From the NCBI GenBank assembly GCA_001567355.1, contig JYNZ01000006.1:18109-82108 (forward strand): DNA of 64,000 nt. Reading direction: 5' to 3'. Shown piece by piece: positions 54,639-63,441 of this stretch; within the stretch, counting starts at the first letter, position 1, and the number at the start of each line of letters is the position of its first letter. The position numbers were made by a program, and so were the translations under genes. The notes below the pieces were generated by a model that did not search any database, was not told where the DNA came from, and saw only the letters and a program-made list of their open reading frames with translations. The stretch is from a candidate division WS6 bacterium OLB20. GTDB taxonomy: Bacteria > Patescibacteriota > Dojkabacteria > B142 > OLB20.

Positions 54639-55551
54639 AGCTTCTGAGGTCCAATACAGCCCGTTTACTGGCACTTCTGATCGTAATAGCCGCTGGCGCC
54701 GGTCTTCAGCTTGCCTATGACTTCCGTCAGGGAGTAGATCTGGATAACGCGACAGTACTTGAGGTAACCTTTGATCATCCCGAGACAGTGCAGACCGTGA
54801 CAAGGGCGGCAAATGAAGCGCATGTACCGGTCCGCATGGACAGGACAGGCGATGCCTCGTTCAGGCTTTATTATCAGAACAGATCACCGGAAGAGATTGA
54901 ATCGGTTCGCCAGCGCCTGGAAGAGAATCTGGGTACGATAACACAGCATTCTGTCTACCAGAGCATTCCCGGCACATCCTTTGTTGTATCTCAGAGTCGC
55001 TGCAGAACGCTGTCGGGTTTTCTGCTGCCACGGTCGTCCTGTTTCTGCTGATTGCCTTCAGGGGTAAAAACTTCCGCCTGATTGATGTCCTGACATTTAT
55101 CCTGGCTCTGCTTGTCGTTATGCTTTTGTGGCATACATCTGTTCTGCTTATTGCAATGGCTGCAATCAGTGCAGCAGGTTTTGGATTATCACTCTGGATG
55201 CTGCCTGTAATCGCCATCTGGTTCGGAATCTTCGCCACTGTCTTTGTGTTCTCGCTCTACCGTTTTCTGTTTATGCTTAAAGATGCGCGGCCGGACAGGA
55301 TTGCTCTGCACTGGAATACTTTTGCTTCGGAGAACTTCCAGACTGCTGCCTTTGCGGCTGTTGTCAGCGCCGTACCGTTTCTGATCTTCATTATCATGCC
55401 GCTGCCGCAATCACTGCTCGTTGCAATGATTGCAGGATCAGCTGCTGCATCGCTTGTTGGAGTCTATTACATCTTTGGTGCATTCCTGCACCTGCTTGTG
55501 TCCGGATCACGTAAACTCAAGCTTCACAAGCGTGTCAGCCGCAGATGGTAA
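54635..55551 (+). pseudogene. secF: SecF-like protein split by 1-nt frameshift (ORFs 54635..55051 and 55120..55551)
   Basis: The -1 frame is open from about 54990 ('...LQNAVGFSAATVVLFLLIAFRGKNFRLIDVLTFILALLVVMLLWHTSVLL...') and runs straight into the second ORF. 4-nt overlap with upstream secD-like. Confidence 0.5.
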
Positions 55552-56051
55552 TAGCAGATCTTCAGGCGCAGTCGTTCCCGGAGTTCTACAAAGTGTTTTC
55601 TGATCTGATGCATGAGGGGTATGCAGGGTTTCCAAAGCGCCTGCAGGATCATTTCCTCCGGTATGACTACTCAGCCAGCGCCATGCAGAACTGGTTGGAA
55701 CTCGGCCTGCGCAAATTTCTCATAGCATTCGACGATGACGGCATCTCAGGGTTTCTTGTCGGCGACAACAGCTACGGGGGAGTGGCATTTGTCAGCTGGA
55801 TAGGCGTCGCCAGGGAAAAGCGCAATGCGGGGGTTGGCAGTTCGCTGCTTGAAGCGTATGAGCAGTTTGCGAAATCTCGTGCCGCACACTTGATAGAACT
55901 CTTCACATTTGATACAGTCAAGCCGTTTTATATAGCCCGGGGATATAAAGAGGCTGGCAGGCGTGAATCAGGGTATTACGGAAGACAGAACGTGATCATG
56001 AATAAAACGATCGGCTCCTGGTCAGAAAAAAACCTCCCCGCGCTGACGTAA
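55545..56051 (+). CDS. GNAT family N-acetyltransferase
   Basis: Motif A 'VAREKRNAGVGSSLLEAYEQFA', 'ARGYKEAG'. Confidence 0.65.
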   Translation: MVIADLQAQSFPEFYKVFSDLMHEGYAGFPKRLQDHFLRYDYSASAMQNWLELGLRKFLIAFDDDGISGFLVGDNSYGGVAFVSWIGVAREKRNAGVGSSLLEAYEQFAKSRAAHLIELFTFDTVKPFYIARGYKEAGRRESGYYGRQNVIMNKTIGSWSEKNLPALT

Positions 56052-56087: not shown

Positions 56088-57497
56088 TTGTGGCTCTTGT
56101 TTTTTATCATGGCAGAAGCACAGACAAACCAGACAAGACCGATCGTATTCCCTCAAGGAGTAGGCATGACCCGATCTGTAGATAGCGGCATGACGCCGCG
56201 TCTGCAGCCGCGTGCTACTCAGGTAATCAATCCCGATAGTCTGCACGGCATAACATTTACCGGCGAAACAGGGACCGTGGAGATCAACGGACATGAACCG
56301 CTGTTTGTCACGGGAGACAGTATCGGATACGTTCTTGACGGACAACGACTGCTGAAGATCGCTCTGCAGCCTACACCTGAGAACGATCCATTCAGGCTGC
56401 CCGACGAGGCAGGTATTGTCTCGGGTATACACGGGCAGATGGATACTGAGCGGCGTGTAGGAGAGAATGTTGAACATCCGTATCTGCGCAGAGTAACCAC
56501 GCTGCATATGCTGACACATCCTGAGCTGACGCCGCGAGGCTTTGTAACACTCGCTTTAGAGGCTGACTACATTCCCGGCTCGTCCGTGGCAGAAATCCTT
56601 GATCAGATCCGTCTGCAGGAAGAGGATGCAGAACTGAGACAAAACGCCGCCAGAACACGGCGAAATCTGGCACAGTCTATGGTGACTGCGGCGAGTGCAA
56701 ATCAGCAGATGCTTCGCAAGGGTCTGTTGCACAGAGATATAAAGCCTTCAAACATGATTGTGCCCGAAGGGCATGTAGAAGAGATTGCAGTACACGCCGG
56801 TGTCACACATCTGATCGATACTGGTTGTGCTCAGGGAGTAGATGATGCAATACCTGCAGATCGCGATGGGACAGAGGACTACAAGGATCCGCTGCTGACT
56901 GAAATAGGGGCACGCGCTGTTGGCATCGGCAATGATGTCTATTCTCATGGTGCAGCAGCTGCGGAAATGCTTACAGACATAAAAGGTCAGAGCAACTTTG
57001 CAGGTCCGCTGCTTGAGCGCCATGGTGGCAGCATCAGATCGCTGTATGCGGTAAACCGTCTGCTGAATGCTGCGATGGATTCTGTTTATGAAAAACGCAT
57101 CAGTTCACCGCTTCTGTTCAGTCTTCTTCTGCGCGAGCTGTTGCGCGATGATGCAGATGCACGACCTGATTTTGCCGAGATGCTGATTAACTATGCAACA
57201 GAAGTCCGCCGTCCTGACCAGCCGCAGTATGCTGTCCATGCAGAACGTGATTTCGTTGAGGTTCTTGAGTTTGCGACCAATGATGACATGCGTGAAGAGC
57301 TGCTCGTTAAACTGAGACGTAACCCCTTACGCACCAGACAGTATCTGGTCGATCTTGAGCTTATCAGTCATGGTGACAGTCATCACGGGACCGATTATGC
57401 TGAAATGCTGGTTCGCGAACTTGAAAAGACGCCCTCTCAGAAAGAGGCTGAACTCACGGGCAGAAGCACGATTGAATTTCCTGTAACCTCTGACTGA
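56088..57497 (+). CDS. Divergent eukaryotic-like Ser/Thr protein kinase domain protein
   Basis: Catalytic loop 'LLHRDIKPSNMIV', 'DTG' in place of DFG, subdomain IX-like 'DVYSHGAAAAEMLTD', candidate beta3 Lys 'RLLKIAL'. Confidence 0.55.
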   Translation: MWLLFFIMAEAQTNQTRPIVFPQGVGMTRSVDSGMTPRLQPRATQVINPDSLHGITFTGETGTVEINGHEPLFVTGDSIGYVLDGQRLLKIALQPTPENDPFRLPDEAGIVSGIHGQMDTERRVGENVEHPYLRRVTTLHMLTHPELTPRGFVTLALEADYIPGSSVAEILDQIRLQEEDAELRQNAARTRRNLAQSMVTAASANQQMLRKGLLHRDIKPSNMIVPEGHVEEIAVHAGVTHLIDTGCAQGVDDAIPADRDGTEDYKDPLLTEIGARAVGIGNDVYSHGAAAAEMLTDIKGQSNFAGPLLERHGGSIRSLYAVNRLLNAAMDSVYEKRISSPLLFSLLLRELLRDDADARPDFAEMLINYATEVRRPDQPQYAVHAERDFVEVLEFATNDDMREELLVKLRRNPLRTRQYLVDLELISHGDSHHGTDYAEMLVRELEKTPSQKEAELTGRSTIEFPVTSD

Positions 57498-57509
57498 TCA
57501 GGGATCCTG

Positions 57510-57956
57510 TCAGTTATACTCCTGGCTGTAAAATCCGGAGATGACCTTGGCACGTTCGTCGTAAACCTGGATATATATTCTGAAGGGGCGGGGAATTGAT
57601 TCCATGTCCGGTATTACAAACGCCTCGTTATCTGCGGCTGTGATATTGATCTCTTTGCCTTCGAGTCTCAACCACTGTCCATCCTGCAGCACCTCCACGC
57701 TGCCGATGCAGGTGTGTTCGGCACAGACAATATATGCATCATCGTCAAGATCCGGCTCCAGTCGAACACCGTCTCCATCCTCATTAAGACTGCGAATATC
57801 CACATTTGATGTGTCTTCGGACAGGGCACGGACTTCCGGATAGGAGAGCGGTTCTCTGGAAGTGCTGTTGCCTGGCTGCATCGCATTGTAAAGAGACAGT
57901 GCAAATACAAACAAAACGGTGGCGACTGTCAGAACAATGAGTGTCCGACGGTTCAT
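57510..57956 (-). CDS. Small secreted/anchored hypothetical protein
   Basis: Signal-like 'MNRRTLIVLTVATVLFVFALSLYNA'. Confidence 0.35.
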   Translation of the reverse strand: MNRRTLIVLTVATVLFVFALSLYNAMQPGNSTSREPLSYPEVRALSEDTSNVDIRSLNEDGDGVRLEPDLDDDAYIVCAEHTCIGSVEVLQDGQWLRLEGKEINITAADNEAFVIPDMESIPRPFRIYIQVYDERAKVISGFYSQEYN

Positions 57957-58681
57957 CAGTCAAATACCCGCTCAATCTTGCGGGCGATGTAATAGGTATT
58001 ACCGTTACCGTTTCTGCCGTCTGCGGTATATATGCTTACAATTTCAAGTCCTGCGTTTGTACAAAGCTGACGTACTTCATCCTGTGTGTAGGCATGAGCA
58101 TAGCGGAGTAATCGTGGATCACCTTTCCAGTCAAGCAGAAAATCACCCTGATCTACATCTTCAGGGCTGAGGCCGATCTCCGCCCAGGAGTGCTGTCTGC
58201 GGATAAGCCAGGGCTGGTCTTTAAAGTTCCAGGTAGTGAAGATTGTATATCCCTGAAGATCTATGTGCTTGCTCAGCTCGGAAAAGAACACCTGACGGGT
58301 TGAGATACCAGGCAGATGATGGGTAATCCCGAATGCGGCAACCAGGTCAAAATGTCCGACGGGCCAGGGGTATTCCAGAATATCATGTTTAAACAGTTTA
58401 AGATCCGGGTTGCGCAGTGCTGCGATCGAGAGCAGTTCTTCTGATGTATCCATGCCGCGGTAGTCGACCTTGAACTTGCTTCTGAGAAAATCATAAAAGC
58501 GCGCATTGCCGCAGGCGACATCGAGGACATGCAGCGGCTGGAATTTAAGCTTTTTAAATTCCTCCAGCATCAGCACCCACCCGTCCCACGGCTCCGACCT
58601 GCTGTCTGAGAAGTCCTGGGAGGCATTACGGTACATTCTGATATTGAGGCTGTTAAGTTTTTGAATGGTATCGGGGGTCAT
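57956..58681 (-). CDS. Class I SAM methyltransferase, Trm9/ALKBH8-like
   Basis: 'LDVACGNARFYDFL' (GCGNGKY-like), 'FDLVAAFGITHHL' (AVIHHF-like), 'YTIFTTWNFK'. Divergent from ELP3. Confidence 0.6.
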   Translation of the reverse strand: MTPDTIQKLNSLNIRMYRNASQDFSDSRSEPWDGWVLMLEEFKKLKFQPLHVLDVACGNARFYDFLRSKFKVDYRGMDTSEELLSIAALRNPDLKLFKHDILEYPWPVGHFDLVAAFGITHHLPGISTRQVFFSELSKHIDLQGYTIFTTWNFKDQPWLIRRQHSWAEIGLSPEDVDQGDFLLDWKGDPRLLRYAHAYTQDEVRQLCTNAGLEIVSIYTADGRNGNGNTYYIARKIERVFD

Positions 58682-58708
58682 AATGATACAATTATACCGC
58701 TTAGAACG

Positions 58709-60463
58709 ATGAATAAATACGCCTTTGATCCAAAACCATACCGTGACGATATTCTTGCTATCGTCAATGAAGTCGCCGCAGTAAAGCGCTGGACACCAAA
58801 ATCTCTGCAGAAGATTCTACCGCGGCATCCGCGTGACGGCAATGCCATATTCAGCAGGGATCAGCTTGTGATGGGTTACCGCCTGCTGGTATCCGAAAAG
58901 CTTGCAGATGAGAACCCGCTTGTACTTGAGCGCATCCGGATGAAGCCGACACGGACGGTGTCGGGCGTGGCACCTGTAACCGTTCTGACAAAGCCATTCC
59001 CGTGTCCCGGTAAATGTATCTTCTGTCCAAACGACGTACGTATGCCGAAGAGCTATCTGGCCGATGAGCCGGGGGCACAGCGGGCAGAGCGCAACATGTT
59101 TGATCCTTACCTGCAGGTGTTTAACCGTCTGCGTGCTTTCATGAACACCGGACACAGCACCGACAAGGTTGAGCTGATTGTGCTTGGAGGGACCTGGTCG
59201 TTCTATCCTGAGGAGTATCAGATCTGGTTTATCAAGCGCTGCTTTGATGCTTTGAACGATTTTGGCGTGCGTGACCGTCGTGACGAGGTAAAGTCAGTTA
59301 ACATGTTTGAGGAGGCAAACCGTATTCCCCGCAAAACAGCTGACGGTCGGACGCGATCGTACAACGAGATCGTGCATGCTGTATCGCGCGGTGCTACAAG
59401 GGATCTGTTAACTGCTTCCGAACTGTCGTCATGGTCGGAACTTGAAGAGGCCCAGGTGGCAAATGAATCGGCTTCTTCGCGCTGCGTTGGTCTGGTAATC
59501 GAAACCAGGCCCGACTATATTGACGAACATGAGGTCATCAAGATCCGCCGTCTTGGCGCCACCAAGGTGCAGATCGGGATTCAGAGTCTTAATGACCGTG
59601 TGATGGAGTTGAACAGGCGCGGACATGGTGCAAAAGAGACAGCTGCCGCAATCCATCTGCTCCGCAGGGCAGGCTTTAAGATACATGCCCACTGGATGCC
59701 TAATCTCTATGGGTCCACACCCGATTCGGATATTGATGACTACAAAAAACTCTGGCAGCCAGAGTTTTCCCCGGATGAGCTGAAGATATATCCGACATCA
59801 GTTATTGCCAATACCGTCCTGCATGAAAAGTACAAACAGGGAGAGTACAGCCCCTACACTTACGAAGAACTGCTGCAGGTTCTGACAGGAACAATGCCGC
59901 TCACACCCCGCTATTGCAGGCTGACAAGAGTTGTGCGCGATATTCCTTCTACCGATATAGTCGCCGGAAACAAACGTACCAACTTCCGTCAGATTGCCGA
60001 AGAGGAACTTAACAAAATGGGCAGTCCGTGTCAGTGTATTCGCTGTCGTGAGATCAGAGGCAGAAAGATCAGCCCTGAAGATCTGCAGGAAGAGCGGATA
60101 GAATACAAAACTTCAGCAGGCACAGAGCATTTTCTGTCATGGAAAACCCGATCGGATGACAGGATTGTCGGTTTTCTGCGCTTGCTTCTGCCTGATGATG
60201 GCGACCATTTTATTCCCGAGCTTGCCGGTAATGCTGTCATCCGTGAAGTTCACGTATACGGACAGGTAGTAGCACTTGGTGAGCGGCAGGAAGGTCGGAC
60301 GCAGCATCTTGGTATCGGCAGCCGGCTCATCCGGACCGCAGAAGATATCGCGCGTTCGGGCGGGTTTTCTGCAATCAGCGTCATATCAGCCATCGGTACG
60401 CGAAAGTATTATTACCGGCTGGGCTTCAGACTGCACAGTCTCTACATGCACAAACCCCTCTGA
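58709..60463 (+). CDS. elp3: Elongator Elp3-like radical-SAM / GNAT tRNA wobble-uridine modification enzyme
   Basis: Radical SAM 'CPGKCIFCPND', Elp3-collinear core, C-terminal GNAT 'HLGIGSRLIRTAEDIA'. ORF opens at a TTG at 58661; ATG at 58709 preferred. Confidence 0.85.
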   Translation: MNKYAFDPKPYRDDILAIVNEVAAVKRWTPKSLQKILPRHPRDGNAIFSRDQLVMGYRLLVSEKLADENPLVLERIRMKPTRTVSGVAPVTVLTKPFPCPGKCIFCPNDVRMPKSYLADEPGAQRAERNMFDPYLQVFNRLRAFMNTGHSTDKVELIVLGGTWSFYPEEYQIWFIKRCFDALNDFGVRDRRDEVKSVNMFEEANRIPRKTADGRTRSYNEIVHAVSRGATRDLLTASELSSWSELEEAQVANESASSRCVGLVIETRPDYIDEHEVIKIRRLGATKVQIGIQSLNDRVMELNRRGHGAKETAAAIHLLRRAGFKIHAHWMPNLYGSTPDSDIDDYKKLWQPEFSPDELKIYPTSVIANTVLHEKYKQGEYSPYTYEELLQVLTGTMPLTPRYCRLTRVVRDIPSTDIVAGNKRTNFRQIAEEELNKMGSPCQCIRCREIRGRKISPEDLQEERIEYKTSAGTEHFLSWKTRSDDRIVGFLRLLLPDDGDHFIPELAGNAVIREVHVYGQVVALGERQEGRTQHLGIGSRLIRTAEDIARSGGFSAISVISAIGTRKYYYRLGFRLHSLYMHKPL

Positions 60464-60517
60464 CTTGCGCATCAGGCAGAATTGAGAGAAACTGAAGACA
60501 GGTAACCTTCAATAAAT

Positions 60518-61474
60518 ATGACCACCACCAAAACAGCAGTTGCGGGGATCTCACTCGGTGTCGGGGCGTTTGTTGTTGTCGTATTCGGAATGCTTCTGTG
60601 TTTCTGCTGCATGTGCTGCATGCTGCTCTTGCTGCCGTTTGCAACTGTACCCGGTCCAACTGATTATCCGTATCTTACAGCAACTCCAACACCATACGAT
60701 CAGGGTGGTACACCAACCCCGCCAGAAAGCGGACAGGCACAACCTCTTCCCGTGCCGGACAGCGGTCAGTTCTTATGGGAGAACTTCGCCGAGCAGGGTG
60801 AGGACTACAGACGCTCGGTTATTCGCGAACAGGATACAATTGTTGTCAGGTTTACAGAACTGGTTGCTTCTGGCGCATGCACTGCGTATCTCACAGACAA
60901 TGCTCACCTGGCACAGAATCGCGGTCAGAGGATCAGCTGCTATTCCTATGCGGTTTCTGACGGCAGGGTCTATTCGCTTGAATCCAGGAGCGGTCAGTCA
61001 CTGTTTGTTGTATACGATACAGATAGAGAACGCACACAGACATATACTATTGGATCCGAGGCCTTTTACTCCGGCCTGACATTTGACCGCGGATCAGTCT
61101 ATTTTGTTTCGTACGAATGTCCCTTCCCGCAAGGTCCGCAGGCATGTCTTACCGGTATCAACCTGCAGGAGGATCAGATCTTCCGGGTTCGTCTGCAGGA
61201 CGTTGCATACCTTCCTGGTGCACGGGGATTATACGAACTGCCGGTTGTGTCACCATCAGGGGAATTTATTGCTGTGCCTCTGATCAACCACGAGCGCAAT
61301 CGTGCAGGTGCAACAATAGTTTCAAGCGAAGGTCTTATTGTCAGAGAGTATACGTATGACCTGTCGCTGCTGTCTGCTGATATATCAGAAGGCCTGAATG
61401 TCGAGTGGATTGATGTTCATTCTCTCAGGATAATCGCCGAAGACGGGCAGACAGTGAGTACGATTAATTTTTAA
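60518..61474 (+). CDS. Membrane-anchored protein with Cys-rich TM helix and Pro/Thr-rich stalk
   Basis: 'LLCFCCMCCMLLLLPF', then 'PTPYDQGGTPTPPESGQAQPLP', then a ~230-aa beta-rich domain. Confidence 0.4.
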   Translation: MTTTKTAVAGISLGVGAFVVVVFGMLLCFCCMCCMLLLLPFATVPGPTDYPYLTATPTPYDQGGTPTPPESGQAQPLPVPDSGQFLWENFAEQGEDYRRSVIREQDTIVVRFTELVASGACTAYLTDNAHLAQNRGQRISCYSYAVSDGRVYSLESRSGQSLFVVYDTDRERTQTYTIGSEAFYSGLTFDRGSVYFVSYECPFPQGPQACLTGINLQEDQIFRVRLQDVAYLPGARGLYELPVVSPSGEFIAVPLINHERNRAGATIVSSEGLIVREYTYDLSLLSADISEGLNVEWIDVHSLRIIAEDGQTVSTINF

Positions 61475-61483
61475 GTTCAGAGA

Positions 61484-61927
61484 ATGATTTACCTGGCAGC
61501 AGATCACCGGGGATTTGAGTCTAAAGCTAAAATTGCGGCTTTTCTGGAATCAGCAGGTCATGAGGTCAGTGATCTTGGTCCGCACAGTTATGACAAGGAT
61601 GATGATTATCCTGACTATGCAATCCCTCTCGCAGAGACGGTTGCAGGAGAAGACGGAGCCAGAGGTATCCTGATCTGCGGTTCCGGGGTCGGGGTTACTA
61701 TTGCGGCCAACAAAGTTAAGGGAGCACGTGCCGGTTATATCGAATCGGTCAGACATGCAGAGGCCGCCCGGACGGATGATGACATCAATATACTTGTTCT
61801 TGACGAGTTTACATTCAGTCCTGAAACAGACTTCCCGATCATTGAAGCCTTTCTGGGTACGCCGTTTTCTGATGAGGACCGTCACAATCGCCGCCTGCAG
61901 AAGATATCTGATTACGAACAGTCATGA
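61484..61927 (+). CDS. rpiB: Ribose-5-phosphate isomerase B
   Basis: 'IYLAADHRGFESK', 'ILICGSGVGVTIAANK'. Confidence 0.9.
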   Translation: MIYLAADHRGFESKAKIAAFLESAGHEVSDLGPHSYDKDDDYPDYAIPLAETVAGEDGARGILICGSGVGVTIAANKVKGARAGYIESVRHAEAARTDDDINILVLDEFTFSPETDFPIIEAFLGTPFSDEDRHNRRLQKISDYEQS

Positions 61928-62559
61928 ACGTACATCCTGCAATTCTTGAAGACACAAGGACCGGTTTTGAGCAGCAGCTGAGCAGAGTCAGGGGATTTGC
62001 GCTCGATATTGATATTGATGTAATTGACTGGGAACGCACACCCGGCAAAACCATCTCTGCTGCAATCGCCCTTGAGTCAGACTTTGGAGATGCCGGACTG
62101 CATTTTGACCTGATGATGGACCGGCCCGCGGATACAGTCGCAACACTGATCAGTGATGCACGTGTCAGGACTGTGATCGTAAACCTTGAATCTGCCGATG
62201 ACGTCTGGCTGCTGCTGAAGCGTATTTCTGCCGAAGGTAAACTCGCAGGCATCTCGGTAAATCCCGAGACGGGTATTGAAACGGTACGTCAGTATTATGA
62301 GCAGGCGGGACTGATCCAGGTTATGACCATTGAACCCGGTGTTCAGGGCAACCCATTCATGGAGGAACGCCTCCAGCTGCTCAGGGATGTGCGTGAGGAC
62401 GGATATACCGGTCTGCTTGGTGTTGACGGGCACATAACCCCGGACACCATTGCTGCTGCACATGCAGCAGGCGCATCACGGTTCAGTGTCGGATCGGCAA
62501 TACTCAAAGCCCCGGATCCTGAAGCTGTGTATATGTCTCTGGTGGCAAAAGTATCCTGA
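61924..62559 (+). CDS. rpe: Ribulose-phosphate 3-epimerase (divergent)
   Basis: 'HFDLMMDR', 'VMTIEPGVQGNPF', 'LGVDGHI'. 4-nt overlap with rpiB. Confidence 0.7.
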   Translation: MNVHPAILEDTRTGFEQQLSRVRGFALDIDIDVIDWERTPGKTISAAIALESDFGDAGLHFDLMMDRPADTVATLISDARVRTVIVNLESADDVWLLLKRISAEGKLAGISVNPETGIETVRQYYEQAGLIQVMTIEPGVQGNPFMEERLQLLRDVREDGYTGLLGVDGHITPDTIAAAHAAGASRFSVGSAILKAPDPEAVYMSLVAKVS

Positions 62560-62583
62560 GAGGCAGTTGGATTTCAGACAGGG

Positions 62584-63441
62584 GTGTACTATACTAAACC
62601 AACTGACCTGCCCATGGACGTTAAAGATCTTCAACTCAAAGCCAACAGTATTCGCAAAAGCATTGTTACGATGCTTAATGCGGCCGGTTCCGGACACCCC
62701 GGGGGCGCAATGGGTATTGCTGATGTACTCACGTTTCTGTACTTCTCCGAGATGCGGGTTAATCCTAAAGATCCGCATATGAGTGACCGCGACCGCTTTG
62801 TACTTTCCGCCGCGCATATGGTCCCGGGTCTCTACGCAACGCTTGCAGAAGCGGGATTTTTTCCAAAGGAAGAGCTGACTACATTGCGCAAATTCGGTTC
62901 TCGCCTTGAGGGTCATACCGTCCGCAATCTTGATATCGGGGTTGAGACAACCGGCGGATCGCTAGGGCAGGGTGTATCGATAGCATGCGGTATGGCTGCT
63001 GCTGCCAAGGTGGACGGAGCATCATGGAGAACGTACTGTATAGTCGGTGACGGCGAATCCAATGAGGGTTCCGTCTGGGAGGCGGCGCTCTTCGGATCCA
63101 AGTTTGAGCTTGATAATCTTGTCTTCATCATTGACCGTAATAACATTCAACTCTCCGGAACGGGACAGGAGGTAATGCCGCTTGACCCGGTTGCAGACAA
63201 GTGGAGGGCTTTCAACTGGAACGTAATTGAAATTGACGGCAACAGCTTTGATGATATCGCAGGAGCATTCCGCACGGCACGCGAGGTTAAACACAGGCCT
63301 ACATGCATAGTTGCAAATACGGTGCCCGGCAAAGGTGTCAGTTTTATGGAAAACAAGGCGGAATGGCACGGAAAAACTCCTGATGATGAACAGACAAAAC
63401 AGGCTTTAGCTGAACTGGACTCACTCAATGCAAACGGTTAA
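62584..63441 (+). CDS. tkt: Transketolase, N-terminal (TPP-binding) subunit
   Basis: 'AAGSGHPGGAMGIADV', 'GDGESNEGSVWEAALFG', 'DRNNIQLSG'. Confidence 0.9.
   Translation: MYYTKPTDLPMDVKDLQLKANSIRKSIVTMLNAAGSGHPGGAMGIADVLTFLYFSEMRVNPKDPHMSDRDRFVLSAAHMVPGLYATLAEAGFFPKEELTTLRKFGSRLEGHTVRNLDIGVETTGGSLGQGVSIACGMAAAAKVDGASWRTYCIVGDGESNEGSVWEAALFGSKFELDNLVFIIDRNNIQLSGTGQEVMPLDPVADKWRAFNWNVIEIDGNSFDDIAGAFRTAREVKHRPTCIVANTVPGKGVSFMENKAEWHGKTPDDEQTKQALAELDSLNANG

Follow-up and report, generated by a model that had tools for sequence, protein, structure and literature searches.

A divergent elp3-methyltransferase gene pair in a Dojkabacteria genome and other bacteria: a probable Trm9-like module for tRNA wobble-uridine modification

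In eukaryotes, the methyltransferase Trm9, or the methyltransferase domain of ALKBH8, acts downstream of the radical S-adenosylmethionine (radical-SAM) enzyme Elp3, and the respective genes are dispersed. In archaea, by published description, a stand-alone Elp3 without Elp1, Elp2 or Elp4-6 is accompanied by a Trm9 homologue (Haloferax volcanii HVO_1032, with Trm112; Sulfolobus solfataricus). Archaeal Trm9-Trm112 has been characterised, with Trm9 shown to work together with Trm112, and chemistry of the 5-methoxycarbonylmethyluridine (mcm5U) type has been documented in H. volcanii; the archaeal homologues are confined to a few lineages, and in S. solfataricus the Elp3 and Trm9 genes were reported in 2008 to lie in a cluster (PMC2584109). 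For bacteria, reviews vary on the distribution of Elp3, from Dehalococcoides only, through 'some clades', to 'numerous bacteria', and one review states that no bacterial homologues are detectable for the Trm112-dependent methyltransferases, Trm9 among them. Here we describe a divergent pair of genes, one for Elp3 and the other for a Trm9-like methyltransferase, in a 64-kb stretch of DNA from the candidate division WS6 bacterium OLB20, a member of the Dojkabacteria in the candidate phyla radiation (CPR); this whole stretch is the window referred to below. In the literature searched, which does not extend to subscription journals, neither a bacterial Trm9 nor this gene pair was found to be described. 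The pair is laid out as follows, with protein lengths in amino acids (aa).

57956..58681, minus strand: Trm9-like class I SAM-dependent methyltransferase, 241 aa from an ATG start, predicted tRNA (carboxymethyluridine34-5-O)-methyltransferase (open reading frame, profile and structure searches)
58682..58708, no strand: divergent intergenic spacer of 27 nt (read from the sequence)
58709..60463, plus strand: Elp3, radical-SAM/GNAT, 584 aa, predicted tRNA U34 carboxymethyl-forming enzyme (TIGR01211, Pfam and PDB matches)

The original prediction had proposed an Elp3 gene and a divergent methyltransferase gene with starts about 27 nt apart. The listing of the open reading frames (ORFs) of the window has both where they had been placed, the start-to-start gap is indeed 27 nt, and the motifs that had been quoted are all present in the two proteins. 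The Elp3 gene itself thus stands, but the protein counts 584 aa and not the 583 aa given for it. The longest ORF for Elp3 runs from a TTG (58661..60463, plus strand, 600 aa); since tblastn alignments of its homologues begin in many loci at query positions 1-5, that is, from the ATG at 58709, we take 58709..60463 as the gene.

The interpretation that we prefer, and regard as probable, is that the two genes form a tRNA wobble-uridine module in which Elp3 would make 5-carboxymethyluridine at position 34 (cm5U34) and the methyltransferase would esterify it to mcm5U34. In this scheme, whose Elp3 chemistry is carried over from work on the archaeal and eukaryotic enzymes, the radical-SAM domain would generate a 5'-deoxyadenosyl radical, and Elp3 would activate acetyl-CoA bound in its GNAT domain and add a carboxymethyl group to C5 of U34. 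The methyltransferase, predicted to act downstream of Elp3 as eukaryotic Trm9 does, would then use SAM to methyl-esterify the carboxylate of cm5U34, with R28, H122, R193 and Y17 positioning the carboxylate and W151 and W185 contacting the nucleotide, after what has been proposed for yeast Trm9. The identity of the substrate as tRNA, the position as 34, the product as mcm5U and the independence from Trm112 are what we infer from the homology, the conserved active-site residues and the gene linkage described below.

For the methyltransferase, whose sequence includes 'LDVACGNARFYDFL' and 'AAFGITHHLPG', Pfam returned only the generic domains Methyltransf_11, Methyltransf_23 and Methyltransf_25, and NCBIfam only sub-threshold matches to BioC, UbiE, UbiG and Tam; because these matches are generic or below threshold, they cannot decide between Trm9 and other families. 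Structural relatives were more specific. The first PDB match was in each case 5cm2_Z, the Trm9 chain of the Yarrowia lipolytica Trm9-Trm112 complex (5CM2), with an E-value of 1.9e-6 for the single sequence (next match, 2.2e-5), 4.3e-17 for a 6-sequence profile (next, 2.3e-12) and 1.7e-20 for an 83-sequence profile (76.3 bits over positions 26-227), for which the runners-up reached at most 66 bits and covered mostly the Rossmann core only. The same chain came first in a Foldseek search (E-value 8.5e-15, target-normalised TM-score 0.78) with an AlphaFold (AF2) model of the methyltransferase, which had a mean pLDDT (predicted local distance difference test) of 92.9. When the bacterial family was aligned by hhalign to 20 named fungal Trm9 sequences, the probability was 99.84% and the E-value 2.4e-30, over 200 columns that make up essentially the full length of both. 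The match to the eukaryotic enzyme thus extends beyond the shared class I fold to the whole length of the protein, and takes in the N-terminal helix and the C-terminal beta-hairpin region.

Searches in the opposite direction gave the same partner. A Yarrowia Trm9 fragment matched one of the 469 ORFs of the window, the methyltransferase alone (E-value 3e-8), and a hidden Markov model (HMM) of fungal Trm9 gave the window protein 46.8 bits across its positions 18-210. One subclade of the bacterial family (loci L042, L080, L083, L086 and L087, from CPR and other MAGs) scored 90-124 bits on this HMM, a clear margin, and by these scores it is a bridge between the main bacterial clade and eukaryotic Trm9. 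The methyltransferase had been called Trm9-like in the original prediction, and this holds up: 5cm2_Z leads the sequence, profile and fold searches, the profile-profile alignment is strong, all but one of the essential active-site residues are kept, and clustering with an unrelated methyltransferase family was looked for and not found. Identity to eukaryotic Trm9 is about 20-23% in this bacterial host and, judged from the comparisons above, the window methyltransferase is a divergent bacterial member of the Trm9 lineage and not a close orthologue. An exhaustive profile search returned 2,374 clusters (50% identity, E-value at most 1e-30), a count that may take in archaeal and eukaryotic Trm9. 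JGI/IMG names many members of the family 'tRNA (uracil-5-)-methyltransferase TRM9', while at NCBI they are 'class I SAM-dependent methyltransferase'.

Some members of the family are fused to other domains. In an Aggregatilineales metagenome-assembled genome (MAG; CAXXWG010000039.1, locus L014:7983-9704, plus strand), a single 574-aa ORF joins a Trm9-like methyltransferase (residues ~7-220) to TrmB, the tRNA m7G methyltransferase domain (PF02390 Methyltransf_4, residues 267-433, 138.8 bits). From its domain content, this fusion would be a bifunctional tRNA methyltransferase, and it ties the Trm9-like family to tRNA independently of the Elp3 linkage. Two proteins from the exhaustive search, P0248 (421 aa) and P0255 (547 aa), carry a DUF559 domain (Vsr-like endonuclease) that breaks up the methyltransferase domain near residue 94 and looks like a mobile insertion inside the gene. 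A further family member, P0281 (429 aa), carries a C-terminal GNAT domain (Acetyltransf_9) fused to the Trm9-like methyltransferase.

The patch around the SAM methyl group has been mutated in yeast Trm9 by Létoquart et al. (PMC4678810), who found R29, D72, H116, W145, W168, R241, Y243 and N271 to be required. In that study D72A abolished SAM binding, H116A was inactive and Y243A retained ~10% activity; R29 is the proposed binder of the cm5U carboxylate, which R29 and Y18 together would position. The corresponding segments of the window protein are the following.

58598..58612, minus strand: 'FSDSR', aa 24-28, N-terminal; R28 corresponds to yeast R29, and Y17 just upstream to Y18
58502..58525, minus strand: SAM-binding motif I 'LDVACGNA', aa 53-60 (sequence alignment)
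58307..58330, minus strand: 'GITHHLPG', aa 118-125; H121 and H122 correspond to the yeast catalytic H115 and H116
58088..58147, minus strand: C-terminal segment from 'GDFLLDW' to 'LRYAHAY', predicted to bind substrate; W185 corresponds to W168, R193 to R241 and Y194 to Y242, with A195 in place of Y243, followed by H196

Seven of the eight residues defined as essential by mutagenesis are kept in the window protein, Y243 being the exception, and in all, the equivalents of Y18, R29, D72, H115, H116, W145, W168, R241, Y242, D270 and N271 are retained. We counted these positions in 83 sequences of the bacterial family and in 20 fungal Trm9 sequences, among which the eight essential residues, Y18 and H115 are invariant (20/20). 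In the bacterial set, Y17 (yeast Y18), H122 (H116), W151 (W145) and R193 (R241) are present in 83/83, R28 (R29) and the SAM-binding acidic residue D78 (D72) in 82/83 each, and H121 (H115) in 81/83; W185 (W168) is W in 74 and F in the other 9. Y194 and H196 are conserved too, as is F24 (81/83), which is invariant in fungal Trm9. Toward the C-terminus, D is found at D221 (D270) in 69 of the 83 sequences and N at N228 (N271) in 71; hhalign pairs these two with D221 and N222 of the fungal profile, so that the bacterial family has an insertion of 6 residues between them, before N228. The five sequences of the 83 with Y at the yeast Y243 position are probably those of the subclade closest to fungal Trm9 (L042, L080, L083, L086 and L087).

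The second line of evidence is the association of the two genes. Four distant homologues of the methyltransferase that were looked up first (31-36% identity, one from a Thermoanaerobaculia MAG) all lay divergent beside an Elp3-type gene, the other neighbours being unrelated. We then took the methyltransferase as the starting point and scanned one genome per GTDB species, which yielded 80 loci, 72 of them with more than 2.5 kb of upstream flank; a pair was called adjacent and divergent if the gap was under 400 nt. Elp3 lay within 5 kb of the methyltransferase in 59 of these 72 species loci, in the following arrangements.

43/72 GTDB species loci: Elp3 directly adjacent and divergent (<400 nt)
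15/72 GTDB species loci: Elp3 divergent, with 0.5-2.3 kb of varied genes inserted
1/72 GTDB species loci: Elp3 on the same strand, 4.9 kb away

In the reverse scan, anchored on Elp3 in metagenome contigs with enough flank (n=75), the methyltransferase was adjacent and divergent in 39 loci and nearby in a few more. According to the labels of their records, the loci with linkage belong to Patescibacteria (Saccharibacteria, Pacebacteria, WWE3, Dojkabacteria, Parcubacteria and Peregrinibacteria), Chloroflexota, Acidobacteriota, Myxococcota and 'Deltaproteobacteria', Pseudomonadales (Pseudomonadota), Spirochaetota and one Ellagibacter (Actinomycetota), and the pair spans at least seven bacterial phyla. 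Co-occurrence with elp3 in other genomes, whose absence the original prediction had named as evidence against itself, is therefore strong in both directions. Its further statement that bacteria seldom have Elp3 homologues is out of date, given that this Elp3 clade yielded 403 confirmed metagenome stretches and is present in at least seven phyla.

The pair has no conserved third member: all-against-all clustering of the ORFs of 84 loci gave only the methyltransferase, Elp3 and shadow ORFs, and the genes inserted between the two are heterogeneous (SDR, Uma2-like, kinase and membrane proteins). A motif search, which is an insensitive method, found no Trm112/YcaR-like zinc-knuckle ORF in the window, and none in the flanking DNA of the 84 related loci. 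Across bacterial phyla the module behaves as one unit, without a linked Trm112. In L080, L083, L086 and L087 the most divergent Elp3 proteins (37-40% identity) occur with the methyltransferases closest to fungal Trm9 (90-114 bits), a co-divergence that is consistent with inheritance of the two genes as a unit. The Elp3 of these four loci is also shorter, with alignments starting at query positions 43-52, and L042, which belongs to the same methyltransferase subclade, has no Elp3 within 8 kb. Among the inserted genes, a short-chain dehydrogenase (SDR)-like gene, called from its translation, lies between the pair in L043, L056, L060, L067 and L075, all Thermoanaerobaculia ('Multivorans' group), and in this lineage only. 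Elp3 had no match in a phage collection, and its only match in a plasmid collection was on a haloarchaeal megaplasmid. In the one haloarchaeal replicon that we examined (Natrinema, L168, CP031304.1), no neighbour of Elp3 is annotated as a methyltransferase.

The Elp3 partner has the features of the characterised enzymes. It scores 501.5 bits on NCBIfam TIGR01211 (cutoff 350), with residues 67-582 aligned to positions 47-521 of the 522 in the model, and Pfam finds Radical_SAM, Radical_SAM_C and, over residues 460-572, Acetyltransf_1, the C-terminal GNAT/KAT domain. Its best relatives in the PDB are the Elp3 proteins of Methanocaldococcus infernus and Dehalococcoides mccartyi (358-363 bits), followed by eukaryotic Elp3. 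Three motifs can be placed on the gene.

59003..59029, plus strand: radical-SAM iron-sulfur motif 'CPGKCIFCP', aa 99-107, CX3CX2C (sequence)
60029..60046, plus strand: linker cysteine cluster 'CQCIRC', aa 441-446, aligned with the zinc-site cysteines 'CRCIRC' of archaeal Elp3
60302..60322, plus strand: 'QHLGIGS', aa 532-538, in the GNAT/KAT domain, inside Acetyltransf_1 and aligned with M. infernus 'QHMGYGR'

The last of these we take, from general knowledge of GNAT enzymes, to be the acetyl-CoA-binding loop. The zinc-site cysteines of Elp3 have been described (PMC6367351) and, as far as its sequence can tell, the Cys motif, the zinc cysteines and the GNAT domain of the window Elp3 are intact. 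The CX3CX2C spacing is kept in 57/57 bacterial Elp3 proteins linked to the methyltransferase, and M. infernus Elp3 has one residue more in this motif (CPHGKCIFCP). D. mccartyi Elp3 (5L7J; 358 bits against the window protein) is likewise a bacterial stand-alone protein with radical-SAM and KAT domains, but its chain has 459 aa against 584 aa in the window Elp3, which carries ~65 extra N-terminal residues (aa 1-66). Set against the crystallised Elp3 of both archaea and Dehalococcoides, the window protein has a longer N-terminus and, in the radical-SAM domain, ~60 inserted residues (aa ~184-243) that break the alignment into two blocks. The NCBI product name for TIGR01211 reads '5-carboxymethylaminomethyl modification', a wording repeated in the annotation of CP031304.1, unlike the Elp3 literature, where the modification is 5-carboxymethyl (cm5U); the product of MnmE/MnmG seems to have been borrowed for the name.

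Several observations weigh against the proposed mcm5U34 module. One review finds no direct evidence for xcm5U34 derivatives in bacteria; Trm9 of both eukaryotes and archaea needs Trm112; and the D. mccartyi enzyme, the only bacterial Elp3 studied, is described in a review as very weakly active in vitro. In the comparisons of the methyltransferase, Foldseek gives other methyltransferases E-values that lie no more than one or two orders of magnitude from that of Trm9, the best non-Trm9 methyltransferase of the PDB reaches 41.9 bits on the fungal Trm9 HMM, a narrow margin to the score of the window protein, and the median of the bacterial family is 38.2 bits. The linkage has its exceptions as well, with 13 of the 72 GTDB species loci showing no Elp3 within about 5-8 kb, and 28 of the 75 metagenome Elp3 loci showing no methyltransferase within 4 kb or less. 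Finally, the position of yeast Y243 is A195 in the window protein and, among the 83 family members, C in 60, V in 12, Y in 5 and A in 4.

This last position bears on an alternative that we consider unlikely, though not negligible, namely that both enzymes act on tRNA but that the pathway ends in something other than plain mcm5U34. Another xcm5U derivative (an amide, or a hydroxylated or thiolated form) might be made by way of the methyl ester, or the group added by the bacterial Elp3 might be a different, acyl-derived one, which the methyltransferase would cap. Position 195 is systematically unlike its fungal counterpart and the 6-residue insertion lies close to another essential residue; in addition, an SDR gene separates the pair in five loci and one family member is fused to a C-terminal GNAT domain. 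In yeast, trm9 mutants are reported to accumulate 5-carbamoylmethyluridine (ncm5U; PMC3110198), a sign of extra steps in the pathway. However, the proposed binders of the cm5U carboxylate (R29, H116, R241 and Y18 in yeast) are all kept, and no third gene travels with the pair, both of which speak against this alternative.

It is more doubtful still that the methyltransferase is a carboxyl methyltransferase or other enzyme with the Trm9 fold that acts on a non-tRNA substrate, a small molecule or a protein, its linkage to Elp3 then reflecting some other joint function. The generic or sub-threshold Pfam and NCBIfam matches would fit such an enzyme, as would the modest raw score of the window protein against fungal Trm9 and the weakness of D. 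mccartyi Elp3 as a tRNA enzyme in vitro. Against this, Elp3 from bacteria, archaea and eukaryotes alike has tRNA as its specific trigger (PMC6367351), the tRNA-binding and catalytic residues of Trm9 are kept, Trm9 is the best relative in both structure and sequence over the whole length, and the TrmB fusion again points to tRNA. As to a merely coincidental adjacency of Elp3 and an unrelated housekeeping methyltransferase, CPR genomes are tightly packed and the methyltransferase stop overlaps the next, unrelated ORF, but the divergent pair recurs amid unrelated neighbours, with 43 of the 72 species genomes, drawn from at least seven phyla, and 39 of the 75 metagenome loci showing it, and this effectively refutes a chance arrangement.

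In bacteria, C5 of U34 is also decorated by the MnmE/MnmG(/MnmC) pathway and by CmoM. The latter methyl-esterifies a wobble-uridine carboxylate, converting uridine 5-oxyacetic acid (cmo5U) to its methyl ester (mcmo5U). The enzymes and chemistry of these routes, folate- and flavin adenine dinucleotide-dependent formation of 5-carboxymethylaminomethyluridine (cmnm5U) in one case and a carboxy-SAM route in the other, are unrelated to those of the pair, and CmoM is absent among the PDB matches listed for the methyltransferase with the single sequence and with both profiles. In L005:629-2900 and L006:979-3250, the methyltransferase is followed by a metallophosphoesterase gene and GidB/RsmG, with no MnmG/GidA gene beside them. 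As gidB usually follows gidA, this layout, seen in a single lineage, may hint at loss of the MnmG route. A broader proposal, which we offer tentatively and lean slightly against, is that bacteria of at least seven phyla, including many CPR/Patescibacteria, Chloroflexota, Acidobacteriota and Myxococcota, make mcm5U34 or its 2-thiolated form mcm5s2U34 by means of a horizontally mobile, Trm112-free Elp3-Trm9 module, which would replace MnmE/MnmG in some lineages.

Around the pair, the window offers little further context. The 27-nt spacer contains TACAAT on the plus strand (58687-58692) and a perfect TATAAT on the minus strand (58696-58691), and the two overlap. A scan of 57400-60700 for consensus promoters and terminators found no site in the spacer and 4 promoter-like sites overall against 3.6 expected, which is the level of chance. 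The hexamers, read as -10-like elements on both strands, suggest overlapping and possibly co-regulated promoters with very short leaders, which the scan neither supports nor refutes. GC content is flat at ~0.50 throughout the window, with no compositional island, and no tRNA genes were found in it. Downstream of the methyltransferase lies an ORF of 148 aa (57510-57956, minus strand) that has a hydrophobic segment at its N-terminus and is matched by neither Pfam nor NCBIfam; its start shares 1 nt with the methyltransferase stop (TGATG), and it is not kept beside the methyltransferase at other loci. Two genes at lower coordinates, one for a 469-aa protein with a weak protein-kinase domain (56088-57497, plus strand; 40.5 bits) and one for a small GNAT acetyltransferase (55545-56051, plus strand), are not conserved with the pair. 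On the Elp3 side, genes for RpiB, ribulose-phosphate 3-epimerase and the N-terminal half of transketolase stand in a row (61484-63441, plus strand), a pentose-phosphate cluster unrelated to the pair.

The pair is best seen as a known pathway in bacterial form, which automatic annotation has foreseen in part and the literature apparently has not. Contrary to the reviews cited at the outset, our comparisons point the other way, toward a large bacterial family related to Trm9 and physically coupled to Elp3 across phyla. If the proposed function is true, the taxonomic range of mcm5U chemistry would reach into bacteria, the Elongator pathway could be studied in a minimal system of two proteins, possibly without Trm112, and the question would arise of how these bacteria, many of them genome-reduced, decode split codon boxes without or alongside MnmE/MnmG. 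The gene pair makes the mcm5U-type wobble modification, seen until now as non-bacterial, directly testable in several bacterial phyla.

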